Assembly (NCBI GenBank): GCA_963655125.1
Contig: CAVKDR010000006.1
Span: 85,521 to 149,520 of the forward strand
Direction: 5' to 3'
From: Bulleidia sp.
Lineage (GTDB): Bacteria; Bacillota; Clostridia; Oscillospirales; Ruminococcaceae
DNA: 64,000 nt
The translations under genes were made by a program, and so were the position numbers. Below the pieces are notes generated by a model. It was not told the origin of the DNA. It was given only the letters and a program-made list of their open reading frames with translations, and did no database searches. The number at the start of each line of letters is the position of its first letter. The first letter of the stretch is position 1. Of the stretch, positions 2,587 through 62,953 are shown piece by piece.

Positions 2587-3543
2587 GTGGCTCTCGCCAG
2601 TATTTTAATTGTTCACTTCAACGCCACCGTCACCGGGTATTTCACCCTGCCGCACAAGCTGTTTACCAGCACCCTGGTAAAAGGCATTTACCTCGGCGAT
2701 TTCGGCTCCTCGCTCTTTTTCATCGTGTCGGGCGCATCGCTGGCGCTCACCGTCCCGCCGGAACAAAGCCCCTGGCAGTTCTACAAAAAGCGCGCCAAGG
2801 CGGTGTTCCCGCTGTTCTGGCTGGCGTGGGTGGTCTGCTTTTCCATCCGGTTCATCAGCCAGCCCGGCTATTACGCCGGGGCCAAGACCATCACGCTGGT
2901 GCTGACCTTTTTGGGGCTGGATAACTTCGCCGTGGCCGCCGGCTGGGTGGGAATGGATTTCGCCTGCGTGGGCGAGTGGTTCCTGGGCAGCATCCTGTTT
3001 TTGTATCTGCTGTTCCCGCTTTTACAGCGGGCGCTGCGCAAGGCCCCGGTGCTGACCTGGGTGGTCACACTGCTCGTCTGCATCCCCCTCCACATGCAGG
3101 GCTGGGATAACGGTTTGGTGGCCGTACATATCCCGGAATTCCTCTTTGGCATGACCTTTTTAACGCTGAAAGACCAGATGAAGGCTGTTTTAGTGCTGCT
3201 GTTTGCCTTGGGGCTGATGAACCTGCAGGTCGATGAAAAGCTGCTCTGCTCGATGTTCAGCGCCGCAGTCTTTATCGCGCTGGCTGCTGCGGCGGCCCCG
3301 CTGCTGGATAAGCCGCTGCCCCACGCCATCTGTGCCAAGGCAGCAAAACTCTCCTACGCGGTGTTTTTGGTGCATCACGTCATCATCCAGCGCCTGGTGC
3401 GCGGGTTTGATTTGGCTGCACTCTCCCGCCGCGATACCGCAATTCTGTTCTGCGTCTACCTGCTGGCTGCCTACGCCGCCTCCGAAGCTCTGCTCTGGCT
3501 CCAGCGCCGCCTGAAAGAGCAACGTAAAGCGTTGATGCTGTGA
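2587..3543 (+). CDS. Acyltransferase family 3 membrane protein (polysaccharide O-acyltransferase-like)
   Basis: Polytopic and hydrophobic. It has the acyltransferase-3 N-terminal pattern (D)LIRAVALASILIVHFNATV..FFIVSGASL. The start is ambiguous: GTG at 2587, but the frame is open back to 2530, immediately after RBS AAGGGGAG. Confidence 0.6.
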   Translation: MALASILIVHFNATVTGYFTLPHKLFTSTLVKGIYLGDFGSSLFFIVSGASLALTVPPEQSPWQFYKKRAKAVFPLFWLAWVVCFSIRFISQPGYYAGAKTITLVLTFLGLDNFAVAAGWVGMDFACVGEWFLGSILFLYLLFPLLQRALRKAPVLTWVVTLLVCIPLHMQGWDNGLVAVHIPEFLFGMTFLTLKDQMKAVLVLLFALGLMNLQVDEKLLCSMFSAAVFIALAAAAAPLLDKPLPHAICAKAAKLSYAVFLVHHVIIQRLVRGFDLAALSRRDTAILFCVYLLAAYAASEALLWLQRRLKEQRKALML

Positions 3544-3663
3544 AAAGGCCCCCTCTGCGAGGGGGCTCCCGCGAAGCGGGTGGGGGAGAGAGCCTTGCCT
3601 TTCTATGCTCTCTCCCTCCGTCTGCGCTTCGCGCAGCCACCTCCCTCCCAGAGGGAGGCTTTA
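3544..3663. repeat. Intergenic tandem-hairpin repeat element, copy A (head-to-head dimer forming a roughly 120 bp imperfect palindrome)
   Basis: The first half (ccctctgcgaggg..gcgaagcg..gggagagagcc) is mirrored by the second half (gctctctcc..cgcttcgc..ccagagggagg). The same unit occurs at 18528-18585 and 62152-62198. Confidence 0.6.
3545..3570 (+). terminator. GC-rich hairpin (ccccctctgcgaggggg) downstream of the acyltransferase gene; first arm of repeat element A
   Basis: Perfect inverted repeat CCCCCTC-TGCG-AGGGGG directly after the stop at 3543. Confidence 0.5.
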
Positions 3664-3840
3664 ATGCAAAATCCCTATCCGCTGTTTGCCCAAAAACAGC
3701 GGATATTTTTTTGTCATAGTACCTTATACAAACCTCTGTACAAAAATCGGCAGGTACGGTATAATACAAAGTATGTATGTGTACCGGGGCACACGACCCG
3801 TGCGCCCGGGAAAAAGGAAGTATGGAAAGGGGAGTCCCTG

Positions 3841-4776
3841 ATGTCTGAGTTCTCTGTTTCTCTGGCAAAACTGGCGGAAGAAGCCAATCTGACCGTCGCC
3901 TATACCCCCTGCGAACTGGAAAAGGTCATGGTCACCGCGACCGAAGTGTACCGTCCGGGCATTCTGCTGGCCGGTTACTACGAAAATTTTGATAATAAGC
4001 GCGTCCAGATCATCGGCCTGACCGAGATGTCTTATCTGGAAGAACTGTCCACCTCGCTGCGCAACACCCACCTGGAAAAGCTGTTTTCTTTCCAGCCGCC
4101 CGCTGTCATCCTGACCCGCGGCATGCAGCCGCTTTCCGAGATGATGCAATTCGCCAAACAGTACGGTGTGCCGCTGCTCATGTCCACCGAGATGACCTCC
4201 GCCCTGATGGGCATGCTCATCACCACGCTGAATAAAGAACTGGCCCCCCGCATCACCCGCCACGGTGTGCTGGTGGAAGTTTACGGCGAGGGCATCCTGA
4301 TCCTGGGTGACTCCGGTGTTGGCAAAAGCGAGACCGCAATCGAGCTGGTCAAGCGCGGTCACCGTCTTATCGCCGATGACGCGGTGGAACTGCGCCGCAT
4401 CTCCTACAAGCAGATCCTGGGCACCGCGCCGGAAAACATCCGCCATTTTATCGAGCTGCGCGGCATCGGCATCGTCAACGTGGCCCGTGTGTTCGGCATC
4501 GGCTCGGTGCGTTCCAGCGTAGAGGTCGAGATGGTCATCCAGCTGGAACCCTGGGACCGCACCAAAAACTACGACCGCACCGGTCTGGAGACCGAGTACA
4601 CCGACATTCTCGGTGTCAAGGTGCCCAAGATGCTGATCCCCGTCATGCCCGGCCGTAACCTGGCCGTCATCATCGAGACGGCGGCAATCAACAACCGCCA
4701 GAAAGAGATGGGCTACAACGCCGCCAAGGAACTGCTGAAGCAGCTGGGCCTGAACGACGATGCCAACCTCAAATAA
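3841..4776 (+). CDS. hprK: HPr kinase/phosphorylase
   Basis: P-loop GDSGVGKSETAIELVKRGHRLIADD; RBS AAAGGGGAG upstream of ATG 3841. The ORF-track extension back to 3580 merely translates the intergenic repeat. Confidence 0.9.
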   Translation: MSEFSVSLAKLAEEANLTVAYTPCELEKVMVTATEVYRPGILLAGYYENFDNKRVQIIGLTEMSYLEELSTSLRNTHLEKLFSFQPPAVILTRGMQPLSEMMQFAKQYGVPLLMSTEMTSALMGMLITTLNKELAPRITRHGVLVEVYGEGILILGDSGVGKSETAIELVKRGHRLIADDAVELRRISYKQILGTAPENIRHFIELRGIGIVNVARVFGIGSVRSSVEVEMVIQLEPWDRTKNYDRTGLETEYTDILGVKVPKMLIPVMPGRNLAVIIETAAINNRQKEMGYNAAKELLKQLGLNDDANLK

Positions 4777-18511: not shown

Positions 18512-18527
18512 CTGTGCGGCCATCGCT

Positions 18528-18585
18528 TTGCCTCCCTCTGCGAGGGAGGTGGCGCGAAGCGCCGGAGGGAGAGAGCCTCCGTTGA
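18528..18585. repeat. Intergenic tandem-hairpin repeat element, copy B
   Basis: gcctccctctgcgagggaggtggcgcgaagcgccggagggagagagcctcc, sharing the hairpin1/hairpin2/GGGAGAGAGCC architecture with copies at 3544 and 62152. Confidence 0.6.
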
Positions 18586-18657
18586 CGGAGTAATAGAAAA
18601 GCGGCAAGAAATCTGCGTTTTAGCTGAATTTTTGCTGGATTATTTGTCTAAAACCAC

Positions 18658-21688: not shown

Positions 21689-21893
21689 GGCAGTACCGTG
21701 TTATGCTGCGCGCAGACTGTCGGAGAGTGCTTTGTAGGGGCGAACAGTGTTCGCCCGCACCCACTTGCCATGCGGGAAGTCCCCCGGGCAAAAGCGCCGC
21801 TTCGCCAAGCCTGCAGCCGCACAATGCAGTGCAGCTGAAAAGCTGGAATATAGAGGTTTTATAAAGGTCTAAAAAAATAGGAGGGTTTTCGAT

Positions 21894-58616: not shown

Positions 58617-58692
<76 letters not shown>

Positions 58693-58716
58693 AGAAGTGC
58701 GTGTCTTTCGTGACAG

Positions 58717-58752
58717 CTTATTTAGTATAGCAGACGACACGTGCCATGTCAA
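58717..58752 (-). promoter_or_regulatory. Promoter for tRNA-Ala copy 1 (TTGACA-17-TATACT on minus strand)
   Basis: Plus-strand tgtcaa at 58747-58752 and agtata at 58724-58729. Confidence 0.7.
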
Positions 58753-58926
58753 GCATGTTTTTTGCAAAAATTGAAAATATTTGCAAATTTTCGCTGTAGG
58801 GGCCGATGCTTGCCATCGGCCCGCCATCTGCGCACACCCGGCATATCGTAGGGGCGGATTCCATATCCGCCCGCAAAACAGGGAATACAAACAAAAAAGA
58901 CCGCAACTTCCGTTGCGGTCTATATC

Positions 58927-59002
<76 letters not shown>

Positions 59003-59236
59003 AGAAGTGCGTGTCTTTCGTGACAGCTTATTTAGTATAGCAGACGACACGTGCCATGTCAAGCATGTTTTTTGCAAAAATTGAAAATATTTGCAAATTT
59101 TCGCTGTAGGGGCCGATGCTTGCCATCGGCCCGCCATCTGCGCACACCCGGCATATCGTAGGGGCGGATTCCATATCCGCCCGCAAAACAGGGAATACAA
59201 ACAAAAAAGACCGCAACTTCCGTTGCGGTCTATATC

Positions 59237-59312
<76 letters not shown>

Positions 59313-59445: not shown

Positions 59446-62141
<2,696 letters not shown>

Positions 62142-62151
62142 CGCCTACAAA

Positions 62152-62198
62152 AAAGGCCCCCTTGTGCAAAGGGGGCTCCGCCGAAGGCGGTGGGGGGA
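62152..62198. repeat. Intergenic tandem-hairpin repeat element, copy C (acts as the ligA terminator region)
   Basis: ggcccccttgtgcaaagggggctccgccgaaggcggtgggggg: hairpin1 + hairpin2 + GGTGGGGGG, the same architecture as copies A and B. Confidence 0.55.
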
Positions 62199-62296
62199 TT
62201 GTGACCTTGCCAGTAAAACAATCTGCTCCTGCAAAATTACAATCCCTCAGTCTGCGCTATCGCGCATCCAGCTCCCTTTACACAAGGGAGCCTTTT

Positions 62297-62953
62297 TTAT
62301 TTCACCGCCGCTTTCATCATCCACTTCGCCCCGCACACAGCAAGCACTGCCAGCACACCTACGGGGAACACCAGCATCCACGGGCACTCCGCCAGCGGGT
62401 GCAGCCATTTGTCAACGCTGACACACCCGCCAATAAACAAAAAGTACAGCACCCAGCCGCCCGTGCGGCCAAACCGGCTGAGTACGCCTGCCCACACAAG
62501 CCCCACCAACACCGGCAGTACGGCGCAGACCGGCCACACAAAAACCGGGATACCCCGCCACAACTCACTGACGGCAAACAGTGGGAAGAACCCATGGTTC
62601 ATGGCCCCCAGCCCCGTGATCGTCACGGCGGCAATCGCTTCAGCAAGTGCGGTCATCCGCAAAATATGCAGGCAGATGCCCGCCAAAAGCCCGCGTCTGC
62701 TGGCGCTGAATTGCAGCAGCAGGGGAAAGCTGCCGCACAGGTATACAGCCCCCGGCACACAGCAAAGGATCACGGTTAAAATCATGCCTACGCCGGTCAA
62801 CAGCAGCAACGCTTCGGGGTCATCCTCGGTGGCGGCCAGCAGGGCGGTCACTTCGCCCCCCGCCACCGGGAACAGCGCGGCGGGCACTGCCAGCCAAAGA
62901 TCCGGCGCTTCAAAGCGCAGGCAGGCGGAAATCATTCGTTTCATCACAAACAC
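62297..62953 (-). CDS. Polytopic membrane protein (probable ABC-2 type permease component)
   Basis: 218 aa, all hydrophobic helices; downstream of the ABC ATPase on the minus strand. Confidence 0.45.
   Translation of the reverse strand: MFVMKRMISACLRFEAPDLWLAVPAALFPVAGGEVTALLAATEDDPEALLLLTGVGMILTVILCCVPGAVYLCGSFPLLLQFSASRRGLLAGICLHILRMTALAEAIAAVTITGLGAMNHGFFPLFAVSELWRGIPVFVWPVCAVLPVLVGLVWAGVLSRFGRTGGWVLYFLFIGGCVSVDKWLHPLAECPWMLVFPVGVLAVLAVCGAKWMMKAAVK

Follow-up and report, generated by a model that had tools for sequence, protein, structure and literature searches.

Intergenic repeats with mirror-image purine tails in gut Clostridia, a candidate counterpart of the potential intrastrand triplex elements of E. 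coli

What are the GC-rich tandem hairpins that lie just past the ends of three genes in this 64-kb stretch of DNA (the window, analysed at its full length)? They had been read from the letters as a repeat family with three or four copies. A profile hidden Markov model (HMM) built from the copies revealed five repeat units at three loci, two inverted doublets and one singlet, each with E ~1e-12 and with no other match in the 64 kb. A structure-only scan for an 8-nt pyrimidine arm, its perfect complement and, 10-35 nt downstream, the mirror image of that complement returned the same five sites and no others, while composition-preserving shuffles averaged 0.02. We rejected a chance origin on these counts, on the E values and on more than 100 homologous stretches found elsewhere. 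All five units are intergenic. Each locus starts 1-16 nt past the stop codon of its upstream gene (acyltransferase, DUF2344 or ligA), as the sequence-only reading had placed them. Each unit listed here was seen in the sequence, by nhmmer, in the DNA fold and in the structure-only scan (Y, pyrimidine arm; R, purine arm; the parts of minus-strand units run from high to low coordinates).

Unit A1, type GCCCCCTC, 3544-3594, plus strand (HMM match 3542-3599, nhmmer E=8e-12): flank AAAG 3544-3547; Y 3548-3555; loop TGC 3556-3558; R GAGGGGGC 3559-3566; linker T 3567; hairpin 2 CCCGC-GAA-GCGGG 3568-3580; tail TGGGGGAG 3581-3588; AGAGCC 3589-3594.
Unit A2, type CCTCCCTC, 3607-3662, minus strand (HMM match 3603-3665, nhmmer E=9.5e-13): flank AAAG 3662-3659; Y 3658-3651; loop 3650-3648; R GAGGGAGG 3647-3640; linker 3639; hairpin 2 GGCTGCGC-GAA-GCGCAGAC 3638-3620; tail GGAGGGAG 3619-3612; AGAGC 3611-3607.
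Doublet A, 3544-3662: A1 and A2, inverted with tails inward, 12-nt spacer 3595-3606.
Unit B, singlet, type CCTCCCTC, 18527-18577, plus strand (HMM match 18527-18582, nhmmer E=8e-13): Y 18531-18538; loop TGC 18539-18541; R GAGGGAGG 18542-18549; T 18550; hairpin 2 GGCGC-GAA-GCGCC 18551-18563; tail GGAGGGAG 18564-18571; AGAGCC 18572-18577; unit sequence CCTCCCTCTGCGAGGGAGGTGGCGCGAAGCGCCGGAGGGAG.
Unit C1, TT/AA subtype, 62149-62206, plus strand (HMM match 62150-62210, nhmmer E=5e-13): flank AAAAAAG 62149-62155; Y GCCCCCTT 62156-62163; loop GTGCA 62164-62168; R AAGGGGGC 62169-62176; T 62177; hairpin 2 CCGCC-GAA-GGCGG 62178-62190; tail TGGGGGGA 62191-62198; then TTGTGACC 62199-62206.
Unit C2, TT/AA subtype, 62236-62298, minus strand (HMM match 62231-62297, nhmmer E=8e-12): flank AAAAAAG 62298-62292; Y GCTCCCTT 62291-62284; loop 62283-62279; R AAGGGAGC 62278-62271; linker 62270; hairpin 2 GGATGCGC-GATA-GCGCAGAC 62269-62250; tail TGAGGGAT 62249-62242; TGTAAT 62241-62236.
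Doublet C, 62149-62298: C1 and C2, inverted with tails inward.

The architecture first read at the three loci, with hairpin 1, hairpin 2 and a G-rich tail, was correct, and the extents had to be redrawn. The segment 3544-3663 is a genuine locus, but what was taken for a single copy there is an inverted doublet. At ligA, 62152-62198 covers only the left half of a doublet, and the minus-strand partner at 62236-62298 had been overlooked. The segment 18528-18585 contains a true unit together with an unrelated small hairpin (18577-18590). A generic repeat finder run on the window missed the family, as indels in hairpin 2 set the copies apart.

A unit measures about 50 bases. In order, it has a pyrimidine arm, a 3-5-nt loop, a purine arm, a T, a GC stem with a d(GCGAAGC)-type mini-hairpin as its cap, and a purine tail that copies the purine arm in mirror image, neither as its complement nor as a direct repeat. 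All five window units have a perfect 8-bp pyrimidine/purine stem, and DNA folding (ViennaRNA) gives two hairpins and a free, unpaired tail in every one, with tools that model no triplexes. The tail mirrors the arm at 8/8 positions in A1 (arm C against tail T counted as a match), in A2 and in C2 (C:T and A:T counted), and at 7/8 in C1 because of one extra G. On the purine-tail strand, the apex of hairpin 2 is GCGAAGC in A1, A2 and B, GCGATAGC in C2 and CCGAAGG in C1; the exact mini-hairpin consensus is present in four of the five. Doublet A combines two different types directly 3' of the acyltransferase stop codon (3541-3543) and 13 nt 5' of a canonical terminator (3676-3705), and it folds as a single long imperfect hairpin (-78 kcal/mol, z=-6.5). 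Doublet C occupies the spacer between ligA (stop 62139-62141) and a convergent minus-strand gene, has A6 and T6 at its flanks and also folds into a long hairpin (-81 kcal/mol, z=-9.5).

The earlier proposal of a dispersed, multi-copy and unannotated extragenic family held. A pattern scan of one genome per species revealed at least 109 matching stretches, and iterated nhmmer over them yielded about 204 units. By BLAST, none of the fetched pattern loci overlapped the window. Perfect-stem parsing caught only 129 of the 204 units, and HMM-column extraction was used instead. In the resulting alignment of 159 unique units, 95.3% of cells show the tail in agreement with the reversed purine arm, against 36-52% when the register is slid and 78% in the best direct-repeat register. 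The mutual-information matrix is concentrated on the mirror diagonal (0.80, 0.67, 0.22 and 0.13 bits at positions 1, 3, 8 and 4), with off-diagonal values of at most 0.10. The columns of the two arms pair and co-vary as T-A and C-G family-wide, and the triples observed are C-G*G, T-A*A, G-C*T and T-A*T, of which the G-C*T at position 1 is non-canonical.

Permuting tails among 139 gap-free unique units, drawn from more than 100 genome stretches, lowered concordance from 0.962 to a mean of 0.837 (maximum 0.864). Perfect 8/8 units make up 76% of those observed and 22% on average (33% at most) after permutation. The coupling of arm and tail appears independent of lineage, as judged from counts made without phylogenetic correction, and module-shuffling recombination could inflate that independence. 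An identical hairpin 2 (GTCGGCGAAGCCGAC) occurs with five different arms, each time with the matching tail, and each of the three main arm/tail types occurs with 14-28 hairpin-2 variants. Asymmetric types (GAGGAGGG/GGGAGGAG, GGGAGAGC/TGAGAGGG and GAGGAAGG/GGAAGGAG) fit solely as mirrors. One subfamily is an exception, with a consistent A*G-C mismatch at position 4 (R GAGGGAGG, tail GGAAGGAG) across seven hairpin-2 variants.

Hairpin 2 varies in sequence and keeps its fold. Across 86 distinct segments, 13-24 nt long, end-to-end pairing holds at 83% of positions, compared with 30% in shuffles. Where the scan pattern did not force the apex, it was C(GAA)G in 17 units, C(GCA)G in 10, C(GTA)G in 4 and C(TTC)G in 1; this bias to GNA over TTC marks the purine-tail strand as the one under selection. 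The d(GCGNAGC)/d(GCGNNAGC) mini-hairpins (PMC13037366) and d(GNA) triloops (PMC3201870) are extraordinarily stable in DNA, and their consensus, as in d(GCGAAGC), is what stands at the hairpin-2 apex here. Until now the mini-hairpin has been a motif of physical chemistry, seen also at a few origins and promoters, and has no description as the turn of a triplex module within a genomic repeat family.

We consider it probable that these units are DNA-level dispersed repeats, the gut-Clostridia counterpart of the BoxC/PIT/TMECO potential intrastrand triplex elements of E. coli. In the alignment, the three segments co-vary as expected for a one-strand hairpin with a third strand on top of it, and the base triples bear the signature of a class II purine-motif intrastrand DNA triplex. 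Each unit would be one such module on a single strand: 8-nt pyrimidine arm, loop, 8-nt purine arm, T, capped GC stem and 8-nt mirror tail. The two arms would pair as a hairpin, and the very stable d(C-GNA-G) mini-hairpin that caps the stem, usually GCGAAGC, would provide a rigid turn. The tail could then fold back antiparallel onto the purine arm in the major groove, through G*G-C, A*A-T and T*A-T triples with T*C-G at the junction. Folding would be expected when the strand is single-stranded, during replication or repair, in transcription bubbles or as a mobilisation intermediate. DNA would be its medium, as purine-motif triplexes do not form in RNA (PMC4666352). The units may be selfish or neutral structural repeats, quickly gained and lost in intergenic DNA.

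BoxC/PIT elements were described by Hoyne and Maher (2000), as cited by Holder et al. (2015; PMC4666352). In vitro, CD and NMR show that oligonucleotides of TMECO fold into a stable triplex (Tm 70-82 C), whereas DMS footprinting detected no triplex in vivo, and their function is not known (PMC4666352). The co-varying mirror tail places our element with BoxC/PIT/TMECO and not with classical REPs or pneumococcal BOX. Both are G/C-rich and follow the class II order of pyrimidine arm, purine arm and reverse-Hoogsteen (RH) purine strand. Both are intergenic, multi-copy, unannotated and without strand bias; their inverted pairs are always or nearly always of two types; their loci are hypervariable among strains, with some pairs cut down to a plain hairpin; and neither has an assigned function. 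We found the TMECO consensus in 5426/5426 E. coli genomes searched. The median was 19 places per genome, and the five best matches shown overlay no annotated feature.

The two also differ. The arms here are 8 nt (CCTCCCTC, GCTCCCTC or GCCCCCTC) against the 9-nt CCCTCNCCC of TMECO, and an AGAG(A/C) extension, absent from TMECO, is conserved after the tail. TMECO hosts are Enterobacteria, whereas the hosts here are Oscillospiraceae and other Clostridia, with variants in the further groups named below. The second loop of TMECO is 3 nt (TTA or CCG); here its place is taken by a stem of 13-24 nt with a GNA mini-hairpin cap. Loop 1 is 3-5 nt. The connector from purine arm to tail consists of one T and a 13-24-nt hairpin, and a point against the proposed fold is that it far exceeds the loops known from characterised intrastrand triplexes, 1-6 nt (1-6 nt in ITxF, 3 nt in TMECO). 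The window units, with arms CCTCCCTC, GCCCCCTC and GC[CT]CCCTT and a different connector, do not match the TMECO consensus CCCTCNCCC-N3-6-GGGNGAGGG-N3-GGGNGAGGG, which only a Pirellulales variant approaches. We see the likeness as one of logic, not of shown homology. The ITxF screen allowed loops of 1-6 nt only and so, by its stated limits, would not find this family; the hairpin in place of a 3-nt loop probably explains why earlier triplex screens would miss it. H-DNA has the same purine-tract mirror symmetry and the same base triples. However, H-DNA arises from duplex under supercoiling and can do without a third, complementary pyrimidine segment on the same strand. The conserved, co-varying pyrimidine arm of our units implies instead that a single strand folds.

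The family is abundant in dominant human-gut Clostridia: Gemmiger (including G. formicilis ATCC 27749), Subdoligranulum, Faecalibacterium and other Oscillospiraceae. Besides Oscillospiraceae and other Clostridia, variants occur in Bifidobacterium, Selenomonadales, Pirellulales and Alphaproteobacteria, the last two with a shorter form. (The G. formicilis copy is our locus L043.) Close inverted pairs hold 142 of the 204 units, and 46/55 convergent and 17/17 divergent pairs are heterotypic. Such pairing would keep the local fold of each unit perfect while spoiling the perfect long palindrome. Solo units show no strand bias relative to the coding strand (6 vs 11). In the window, Rfam reached gathering score for three tRNAs only and gave nothing close to locus A even at E up to 10. 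We found no published description of the family, and nothing relevant on REP, REPIN or RAYT in Firmicutes or Faecalibacterium.

The units might alternatively be mobile elements of REP/REPIN or MITE type, folded as single-stranded DNA and recognised in trans by an enzyme such as a RAYT or IS200-like HUH transposase that mobilises the doublet. We regard this as possible, if rather doubtful, and part of the evidence fits it well. Close relatives differ in whether they carry the units at each of the three window loci. At locus A the doublet is cleanly present or absent directly past the stop codon, its segment missing from five of eight contigs that encode an identical HprK protein, which makes the bare doublet the indel unit; the A-runs that flank it may represent a short target duplication. 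Inverted doublets, which fold into long hairpins, are the prevailing arrangement. Near-identical copies number at least 13 in the metagenome-assembled genome (MAG) JAFQOX, many of them breaking contigs, and about 10 in CALYTP, and both MAGs have the doublet at the centre of larger elements, 255-400 bp long, that end in terminal inverted repeats.

In that last respect the family resembles MITEs, a class that includes the Correia, RUP and pneumococcal BOX elements. Between the two MAGs the outer inverted repeats are not alike and are therefore not part of the family itself, and, unlike in MITEs, what comes and goes, both in the window and between the strains compared at locus A, is the bare doublet. 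REP, BIME and REPIN elements reportedly go with RAYT transposases, as Bertels and Rainey in 2011 and Nunvar et al. are said to have described, and BIMEs alternate two unit types, Y and Z. The earlier REP/BOX-like label is right about the inverted pairs and the presence/absence among strains: like those elements, ours are short, intergenic and palindromic, stand singly or as inverted doublets and form long imperfect hairpins. It overlooked the mirror tail, however. The units have two hairpins plus that tail in place of a single imperfect palindrome, and no 5' GTAG/GTGG head beside it; a separate GTAG-hairpin family in the same window better fits classical REPs.

Other observations also argue against mobility. 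Judged from ORF lists and the first 60 residues, the ORFs between distant unit pairs or beside units in the fetched loci included none that could be recognised as a transposase; those between distant pairs looked housekeeping-like. The strict pattern had no match in 2.9 million viral contigs, and the BLAST matches were all partial, falling in 13 faecal 'Bacteriophage sp.' contigs, which lack annotation, and in a few plasmids of sphingomonads. No transposase has ever been tied to BoxC/TMECO (PMC4666352). Alleles at loci B and C show replacement of sequence, with no clean insertion. Unit B is absent from 7/7 aligned contigs, out of 10 relatives' contigs with an identical L19 protein, and the spacer is 244 nt in all 10 against 291 nt in the window. 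At locus C the four closest orthologous loci (98% LigA identity, human-gut contigs) carry a plain hairpin, AAAAGGCCCCCTCACGGCGAGGGAGCCTTCTTT, instead.

A mobile element would be compatible with the triplex fold and would give that fold a function. A stronger form of the triplex proposal takes the three-way covariation to mean that selection maintains the triple helix in vivo and that the module is a functional single-stranded DNA signal read by some machinery, not structural junk. We think this unlikely; the reader could be a single-strand transposase mobilising doublets, or else a factor of replication or repair. Against the triplex fold in general stands the fact that G-rich purine-motif triplexes are disfavoured by intracellular K+.

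At the RNA level, the units could be rho-independent (bidirectional) terminators or 3'-end stabilisers, as the start of every window locus 1-16 nt past a stop codon would suggest. This explanation is quite improbable for the family as a whole. The proposal that the repeats double as terminators stands only for locus C. There the doublet lies between convergent genes and its A6 and T6 flanks make it look like a bidirectional intrinsic terminator, and the relatives' plain terminator hairpin has the same outer arms. A terminator role is thus plausible at the ligA locus only, and at some such sites the outer hairpin with its T-run may act in this way. Locus A, in contrast, has A4/T3 at its flanks and its own, separate canonical terminator at 3676-3705, and locus B has no U-run. 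Family-wide, the flank before hairpin 1 is AAAG, CTTG or CAAG, with AAAG at these 4 nt in only 25 of 102 units, about a quarter. Hairpin 2 and the stem-mirroring tail would be superfluous for a terminator, yet they are conserved and co-vary; the solo units lack orientation bias; and in tests PIT/TMECO did not act as terminators (PMC4666352).

A structured small RNA, or a switch of the riboswitch kind with the tail and the 3' arm as rival Watson-Crick partners of the 5' arm, is hardly credible. The GAGGGAG core of the commonest types is self-mirroring and would allow a 7-bp pairing of tail and 5' arm. However, such a switch predicts a direct repeat, and we rejected both switch and direct repeat on the mirror register (95% against at most 78%) and on mutual information confined to the mirror diagonal. 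Types GCCCCCTC, CCCTCCTC and GCTCTCCC leave at most 5 bp for this pairing, Rfam has no matching family even at E up to 10, and both orientations relative to genes occur. A G-quadruplex or i-motif repeat, or a set of unrelated look-alike GC-rich hairpins, is equally far-fetched: the units are G-rich with two G3-G5 tracts each, and the TMECO CD spectrum is also quadruplex-like, but we rejected the quadruplex because each unit has just two long G-tracts and its two arms co-vary as the strands of a duplex would, NMR ruled out a quadruplex in TMECO (PMC4666352), and the counts given above exclude chance resemblance.

To the question of whether intrastrand DNA triplexes form or matter in bacteria, where TMECO folds in vitro and went undetected in vivo, the family adds evolutionary evidence, in dozens of arm variants with matching mirror tails across many hairpin-2 backgrounds and genomes, a pattern that is hard to explain unless three strands interact. 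The triplex logic, the heterotypic pairs and the locus instability were known from BoxC/PIT/TMECO. The hairpin-bridged module is new here, and short-loop triplex screens miss modules of this kind.

The repeats also have practical effects, breaking assemblies, marking strain-variable intergenic sites and seeding spurious ORFs. Crude ORF calling placed 58 units 'inside' long ORFs, a result that we put down to the spurious ORFs that arise in GC-rich DNA and left unused. In the window, a unit seeds one such spurious ORF at 3580-4776, which opens with 'MGERALPFYALSLRLRFAQPPPSQREA'.

Searching the 64-kb window with an HMM built from aligned copies revealed five units of the repeat and no others. Each unit consists, on one strand, of a pyrimidine arm, a loop and a purine arm (hairpin 1), then a T, hairpin 2 and a purine tail.

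Unit A1: 3542-3599, + strand, HMM E about 1e-12
Unit A2: 3603-3665, - strand, HMM E about 1e-12
Unit B, singlet: 18527-18582, + strand, HMM E about 1e-12
Unit C1: 62150-62210, + strand, HMM E about 1e-12
Unit C2: 62231-62297, - strand, HMM E about 1e-12

The sequence-only reading had counted three or four copies and overlooked C2; the architecture it described is present at all three of its loci: a hairpin rich in C and T, then a short GC hairpin with a GAA-type loop, then a G-rich tail. Its locus at 18528-18585 contains unit B, but the small hairpin at 18577-18590 is outside the family. At loci A and C, two inverted units form a doublet in which their tails point towards each other, and each doublet folds as a single long imperfect hairpin (-78 kcal/mol, z = -6.5 for A; -81 kcal/mol, z = -9.5 for C). 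Folded individually as DNA, all five units form the two hairpins, with the tail remaining free.

The G-rich tail mirrors the 3' (purine) arm of hairpin 1; it is neither complementary to nor a direct repeat of any segment of the unit. The tail changes along with the purine arm across the aligned copies.

Arm and tail sequences of seven pairs from the aligned copies
Arm GAGGGAGC, tail TGAGGGAG
Arm GAGGGAGG, tail GGAGGGAG
Arm GAGGGGGC, tail TGGGGGAG
Arm GAGGAGGG, tail GGGAGGAG
Arm GGGAGAGC, tail TGAGAGGG
Arm GAGGAAGG, tail GGAAGGAG
Arm AAGGGAGC, tail TGAGGGAT

This alignment of arm and tail is independent of any pairing rule because it is defined by HMM columns. Among 159 unique units, with kinship ignored, concordance was 95.3% in the mirror register and 36-52% in slid registers. 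An alternative Watson-Crick helix needs a direct repeat and was rejected, as the best direct register reached 78%. Mutual information between arm and tail was 0.80, 0.67, 0.22 and 0.13 bits on the diagonal (positions 1, 3, 8 and 4) and at most 0.10 bits off it. In 139 gap-free unique units, 5000 permutations of the tails gave a concordance of 0.837 (maximum 0.864) versus the observed 0.962, kinship again being ignored, and 22% perfect 8/8 units (maximum 33%) versus 76%. A single hairpin 2 version (GTCGGCGAAGCCGAC) is combined with five different arms, always together with the tail that matches the arm, and the three main arm/tail types carry 14-28 different hairpin-2 variants apiece. Judged from these combinations, the coupling between arm and tail does not simply reflect a few lineages.

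An antiparallel (reverse-Hoogsteen, purine-motif) triple helix requires a mirror-symmetric purine tract beside a duplex. The triples seen, written pyrimidine-purine*tail, are C-G*G, T-A*A and T-A*T, with G-C*T adjoining hairpin 2. This junction triple is non-canonical, a caveat for the triplex, and a constant A*G-C mismatch in one subfamily counts against a perfect triplex match. A structure-only scan of the window (an 8-nt pyrimidine arm followed by its perfect complement, with that complement mirrored 10-35 nt further downstream, and no sequence motif) returned exactly the five units; shuffles averaged 0.02.

Arm and tail are connected by one T and a 13-24-nt segment, hairpin 2, of which there are 86 distinct versions. 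These pair end to end at 83% of positions, compared with 30% in shuffles, and 62 of the 86 have at most one mismatch. The apex is strongly strand-asymmetric: counting only units unconstrained by the scan pattern, C(GAA)G occurs 17 times, C(GCA)G 10 times and C(GTA)G 4 times, versus once for C(TTC)G. Both d(GCGNAGC)/d(GCGNNAGC) mini-hairpins and C-G-closed d(GNA) triloops are exceptionally stable in DNA (PMC13037366, PMC3201870), and the exact consensus is on the purine-tail strand in four of the five window units. Purine-motif triplexes reportedly do not form in RNA (PMC4666352). Taken together, the apex asymmetry, the mini-hairpin stability and the restriction to DNA indicate that the folding entity is the purine-tail strand, presumably as single-stranded DNA.

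Beyond the window, a degenerate pattern scanned across one genome per species matched at least 109 stretches, and iterated nhmmer converged on ~204 units in 774 kb of listed stretches plus the window, bearing out the earlier suggestion of a wider multi-copy family. The matches listed were mostly from gut Oscillospiraceae and other Clostridia (Gemmiger, Subdoligranulum, Faecalibacterium, Oscillibacter and many MAGs), with a few in Selenomonadales and Bifidobacterium and a shorter variant in Pirellulales and one alphaproteobacterial MAG. Judged from some of these matches and from human-gut contigs with 98%-identical LigA sequences, the host of the window is probably a Gemmiger/Subdoligranulum-like gut Oscillospiraceae. 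Rfam gave no match, either at the gathering score or with E relaxed to 10, and no description of the family was found in the searchable literature, which is limited in coverage.

Close pairs, within about 110 nt, account for 142 of these ~204 units: in 55 pairs the tails point at each other (convergent), in 17 the arms do (divergent). Two different arm types are combined in 46 of the convergent and all 17 divergent pairs, most commonly CCTCCCTC with GCCCCCTC. Because pairing is heterotypic, each unit's own hairpin and tail match perfectly, and the long inter-unit palindrome has mismatches in each of its three segments. We interpret the structure under selection as the local unit, not the long inter-unit hairpin.

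All three window loci are polymorphic. Among contigs whose HprK is identical to that of the window, five have a 157-169-nt spacer at locus A without the doublet and three have 297 nt, as in the window. In the alignment, doublet A (about 3544-3668) directly follows the stop codon, precedes AAAATCC and is bordered by A-runs at each end. Alleles carrying and lacking the doublet are nearly identical over the region except in the last 11 acyltransferase codons (window 3511-3543 versus 1811-1843 of the fetched stretch L200). There the two differ strongly (LKEQRKALML* versus LREERQKLFQ*), which suggests either raised local variation or a recombination tract adjoining the doublet. At locus B, the DUF2344-L19 spacer is 291 nt in the window and 244 nt in all ten contigs with an identical L19 protein, whose promoter region is nearly identical to the window's; the alignment of seven of these ten showed an unrelated 45 nt in place of the unit. 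At locus C, a unit was absent from all 80 orthologous ligA loci of gut-metagenome origin. In the four nearest of them, which have 98% LigA identity and share the convergent neighbour, there is a plain hairpin, AAAAGGCCCCCTCACGGCGAGGGAGCCTTCTTT. The arms of this hairpin are the counterparts of doublet C's outer arms and share their C:A mismatch.

We infer that the units are most likely selfish or neutral structural repeats acting at the DNA level. When the purine-tail strand becomes single-stranded, it would fold into the hairpin, the mini-hairpin and the predicted triplex, and units would be gained and lost rapidly in intergenic DNA. REP/REPIN-like mobilisation by some enzyme is compatible with the triplex fold and, if true, would give it a purpose. 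However, this is rather unlikely, as no transposase was seen among ORFs between distant unit pairs (ORF lists, judged on the first 60 residues) and the units lack the GTAG head carried by a separate family in the window. The terminator role proposed by the sequence-only reading is plausible at doublet C but not for the family at large, as locus A is followed by a separate terminator at 3676-3705, locus B lacks a T-run, A-runs flank only about a quarter of units and solo units show no orientation bias.

The closest parallel to these DNA repeats is the E. coli BoxC/PIT/TMECO group of intrastrand-triplex repeats. Holder et al. 2015 (PMC4666352) describe TMECO, with the motif CCCTCNCCC-N3-6-GGGNGAGGG-N3-GGGNGAGGG, as a class II purine-motif intrastrand triplex. 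Its folding was observed in vitro by CD and NMR (Tm 70-82 C), but DMS footprinting in vivo did not detect it. TMECO always lies between genes, without strand bias and with neither promoter nor terminator activity; inverted pairs always combine types A and B; and its loci are unusually strain-variable, palindromic pairs often being partly deleted to leave a hairpin (PMC4666352). We found its consensus in every one of the 5426 E. coli genomes searched, with a median of 19 occurrences per genome and no annotated feature under any of the five best matches shown. The present family shares the intergenic location, lack of strand bias, heterotypic inverted pairs, variable loci and reduction of a pair to a hairpin. 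In contrast, it has 8-nt arms of different sequence, other hosts and a 13-24-nt mini-hairpin-capped stem in place of the 3-nt second loop, a connector much longer than in characterised triplexes. The ITxF screen allowed loops of 1-6 nt only (PMC4666352) and would not have found it, because the connector exceeds that limit. Membership of TMECO was rejected, since the family has neither the short second loop nor the sequence consensus that define it, and from its sequence features we class it as a putative variant alongside BoxC/PIT/TMECO.

The compact variant, ACCCTCCC-tct-GGGAGGGT-cgaGCGAAGCgag-GGGAGGGTG, has several copies per genome. Because its tail can also form Watson-Crick pairs with the 5' arm, a triplex is here indistinguishable from an alternative hairpin. 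Sphingomonad plasmids gave partial BLAST matches.

Compact variant, by fetched stretch
Pirellulales/Planctomycetota: L008, L011, L012, L019, L036, L040, L050, L056, L061
Pirellulales/Planctomycetota: L066, L071, L080, L085, L097, L100, L102, L103
Alphaproteobacteria: L091

In two MAGs with 10-15 near-identical copies each, many at contig ends, the doublet forms the centre of larger elements bounded by terminal inverted repeats of their own.

MAG JAFQOX (goat colon), MITE-like element: L068:5840-6110, L074:1-345, L018, L029, L057
MAG CALYTP, composite: L026:2360-2620, L028, L042, L090, L096; also in L039

The JAFQOX element (330-400 bp, triplex-type doublet core, outer inverted repeats CAGACTGTCGAAAAAGCC...) directly abuts a host terminator-like hairpin in most copies with visible flank, which suggests hairpin-targeted insertion. 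The CALYTP/L039 composite differs from it, with about 255 bp and ends AAATTGTAATTT...AAATTACAATTT around the doublet; its ATTGTAAT motif recurs in the window after the tail of unit C2 (62236-62243).

A second, unrelated intergenic family has GTAG followed by a GC-rich hairpin (e.g. GTAGGGGCGGATTCCATATCCGCCC) and looks like classical REP with a 5' GTAG head.

GTAG-hairpin copies, window: 21734-21756, 58796-58822, 58848-58872, 59106-59132, 59158-59182
GTAG-hairpin copies, fetched stretches: L110:3991-4063, L115:3935-4015, L156:4072-4170

Relatives likewise differ in whether this family occurs downstream of ligA. Three identical tRNA-Ala(GGC) genes lie in a 310-bp tandem repeat at 58617-59312 (-), and two of the spacers hold two GTAG-hairpin repeats each.

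Long, spurious ORFs at 3580-4776 (+) and 3383-3868 (-) cross the repeats and encode low-complexity peptides such as MGERALPFYALSLRLRFAQPPPSQREA, and one relative has a 58-aa gene annotated across the doublet, so the family probably gives rise to false 'hypothetical proteins'. The strict unit pattern had no match in IMG/VR. Thirteen 'Bacteriophage sp.' records, all unannotated contigs from human faeces and including MT838152.1 and MT837730.1, contain partial to near-complete matches to doublet A, with up to 80% coverage at 84% identity.
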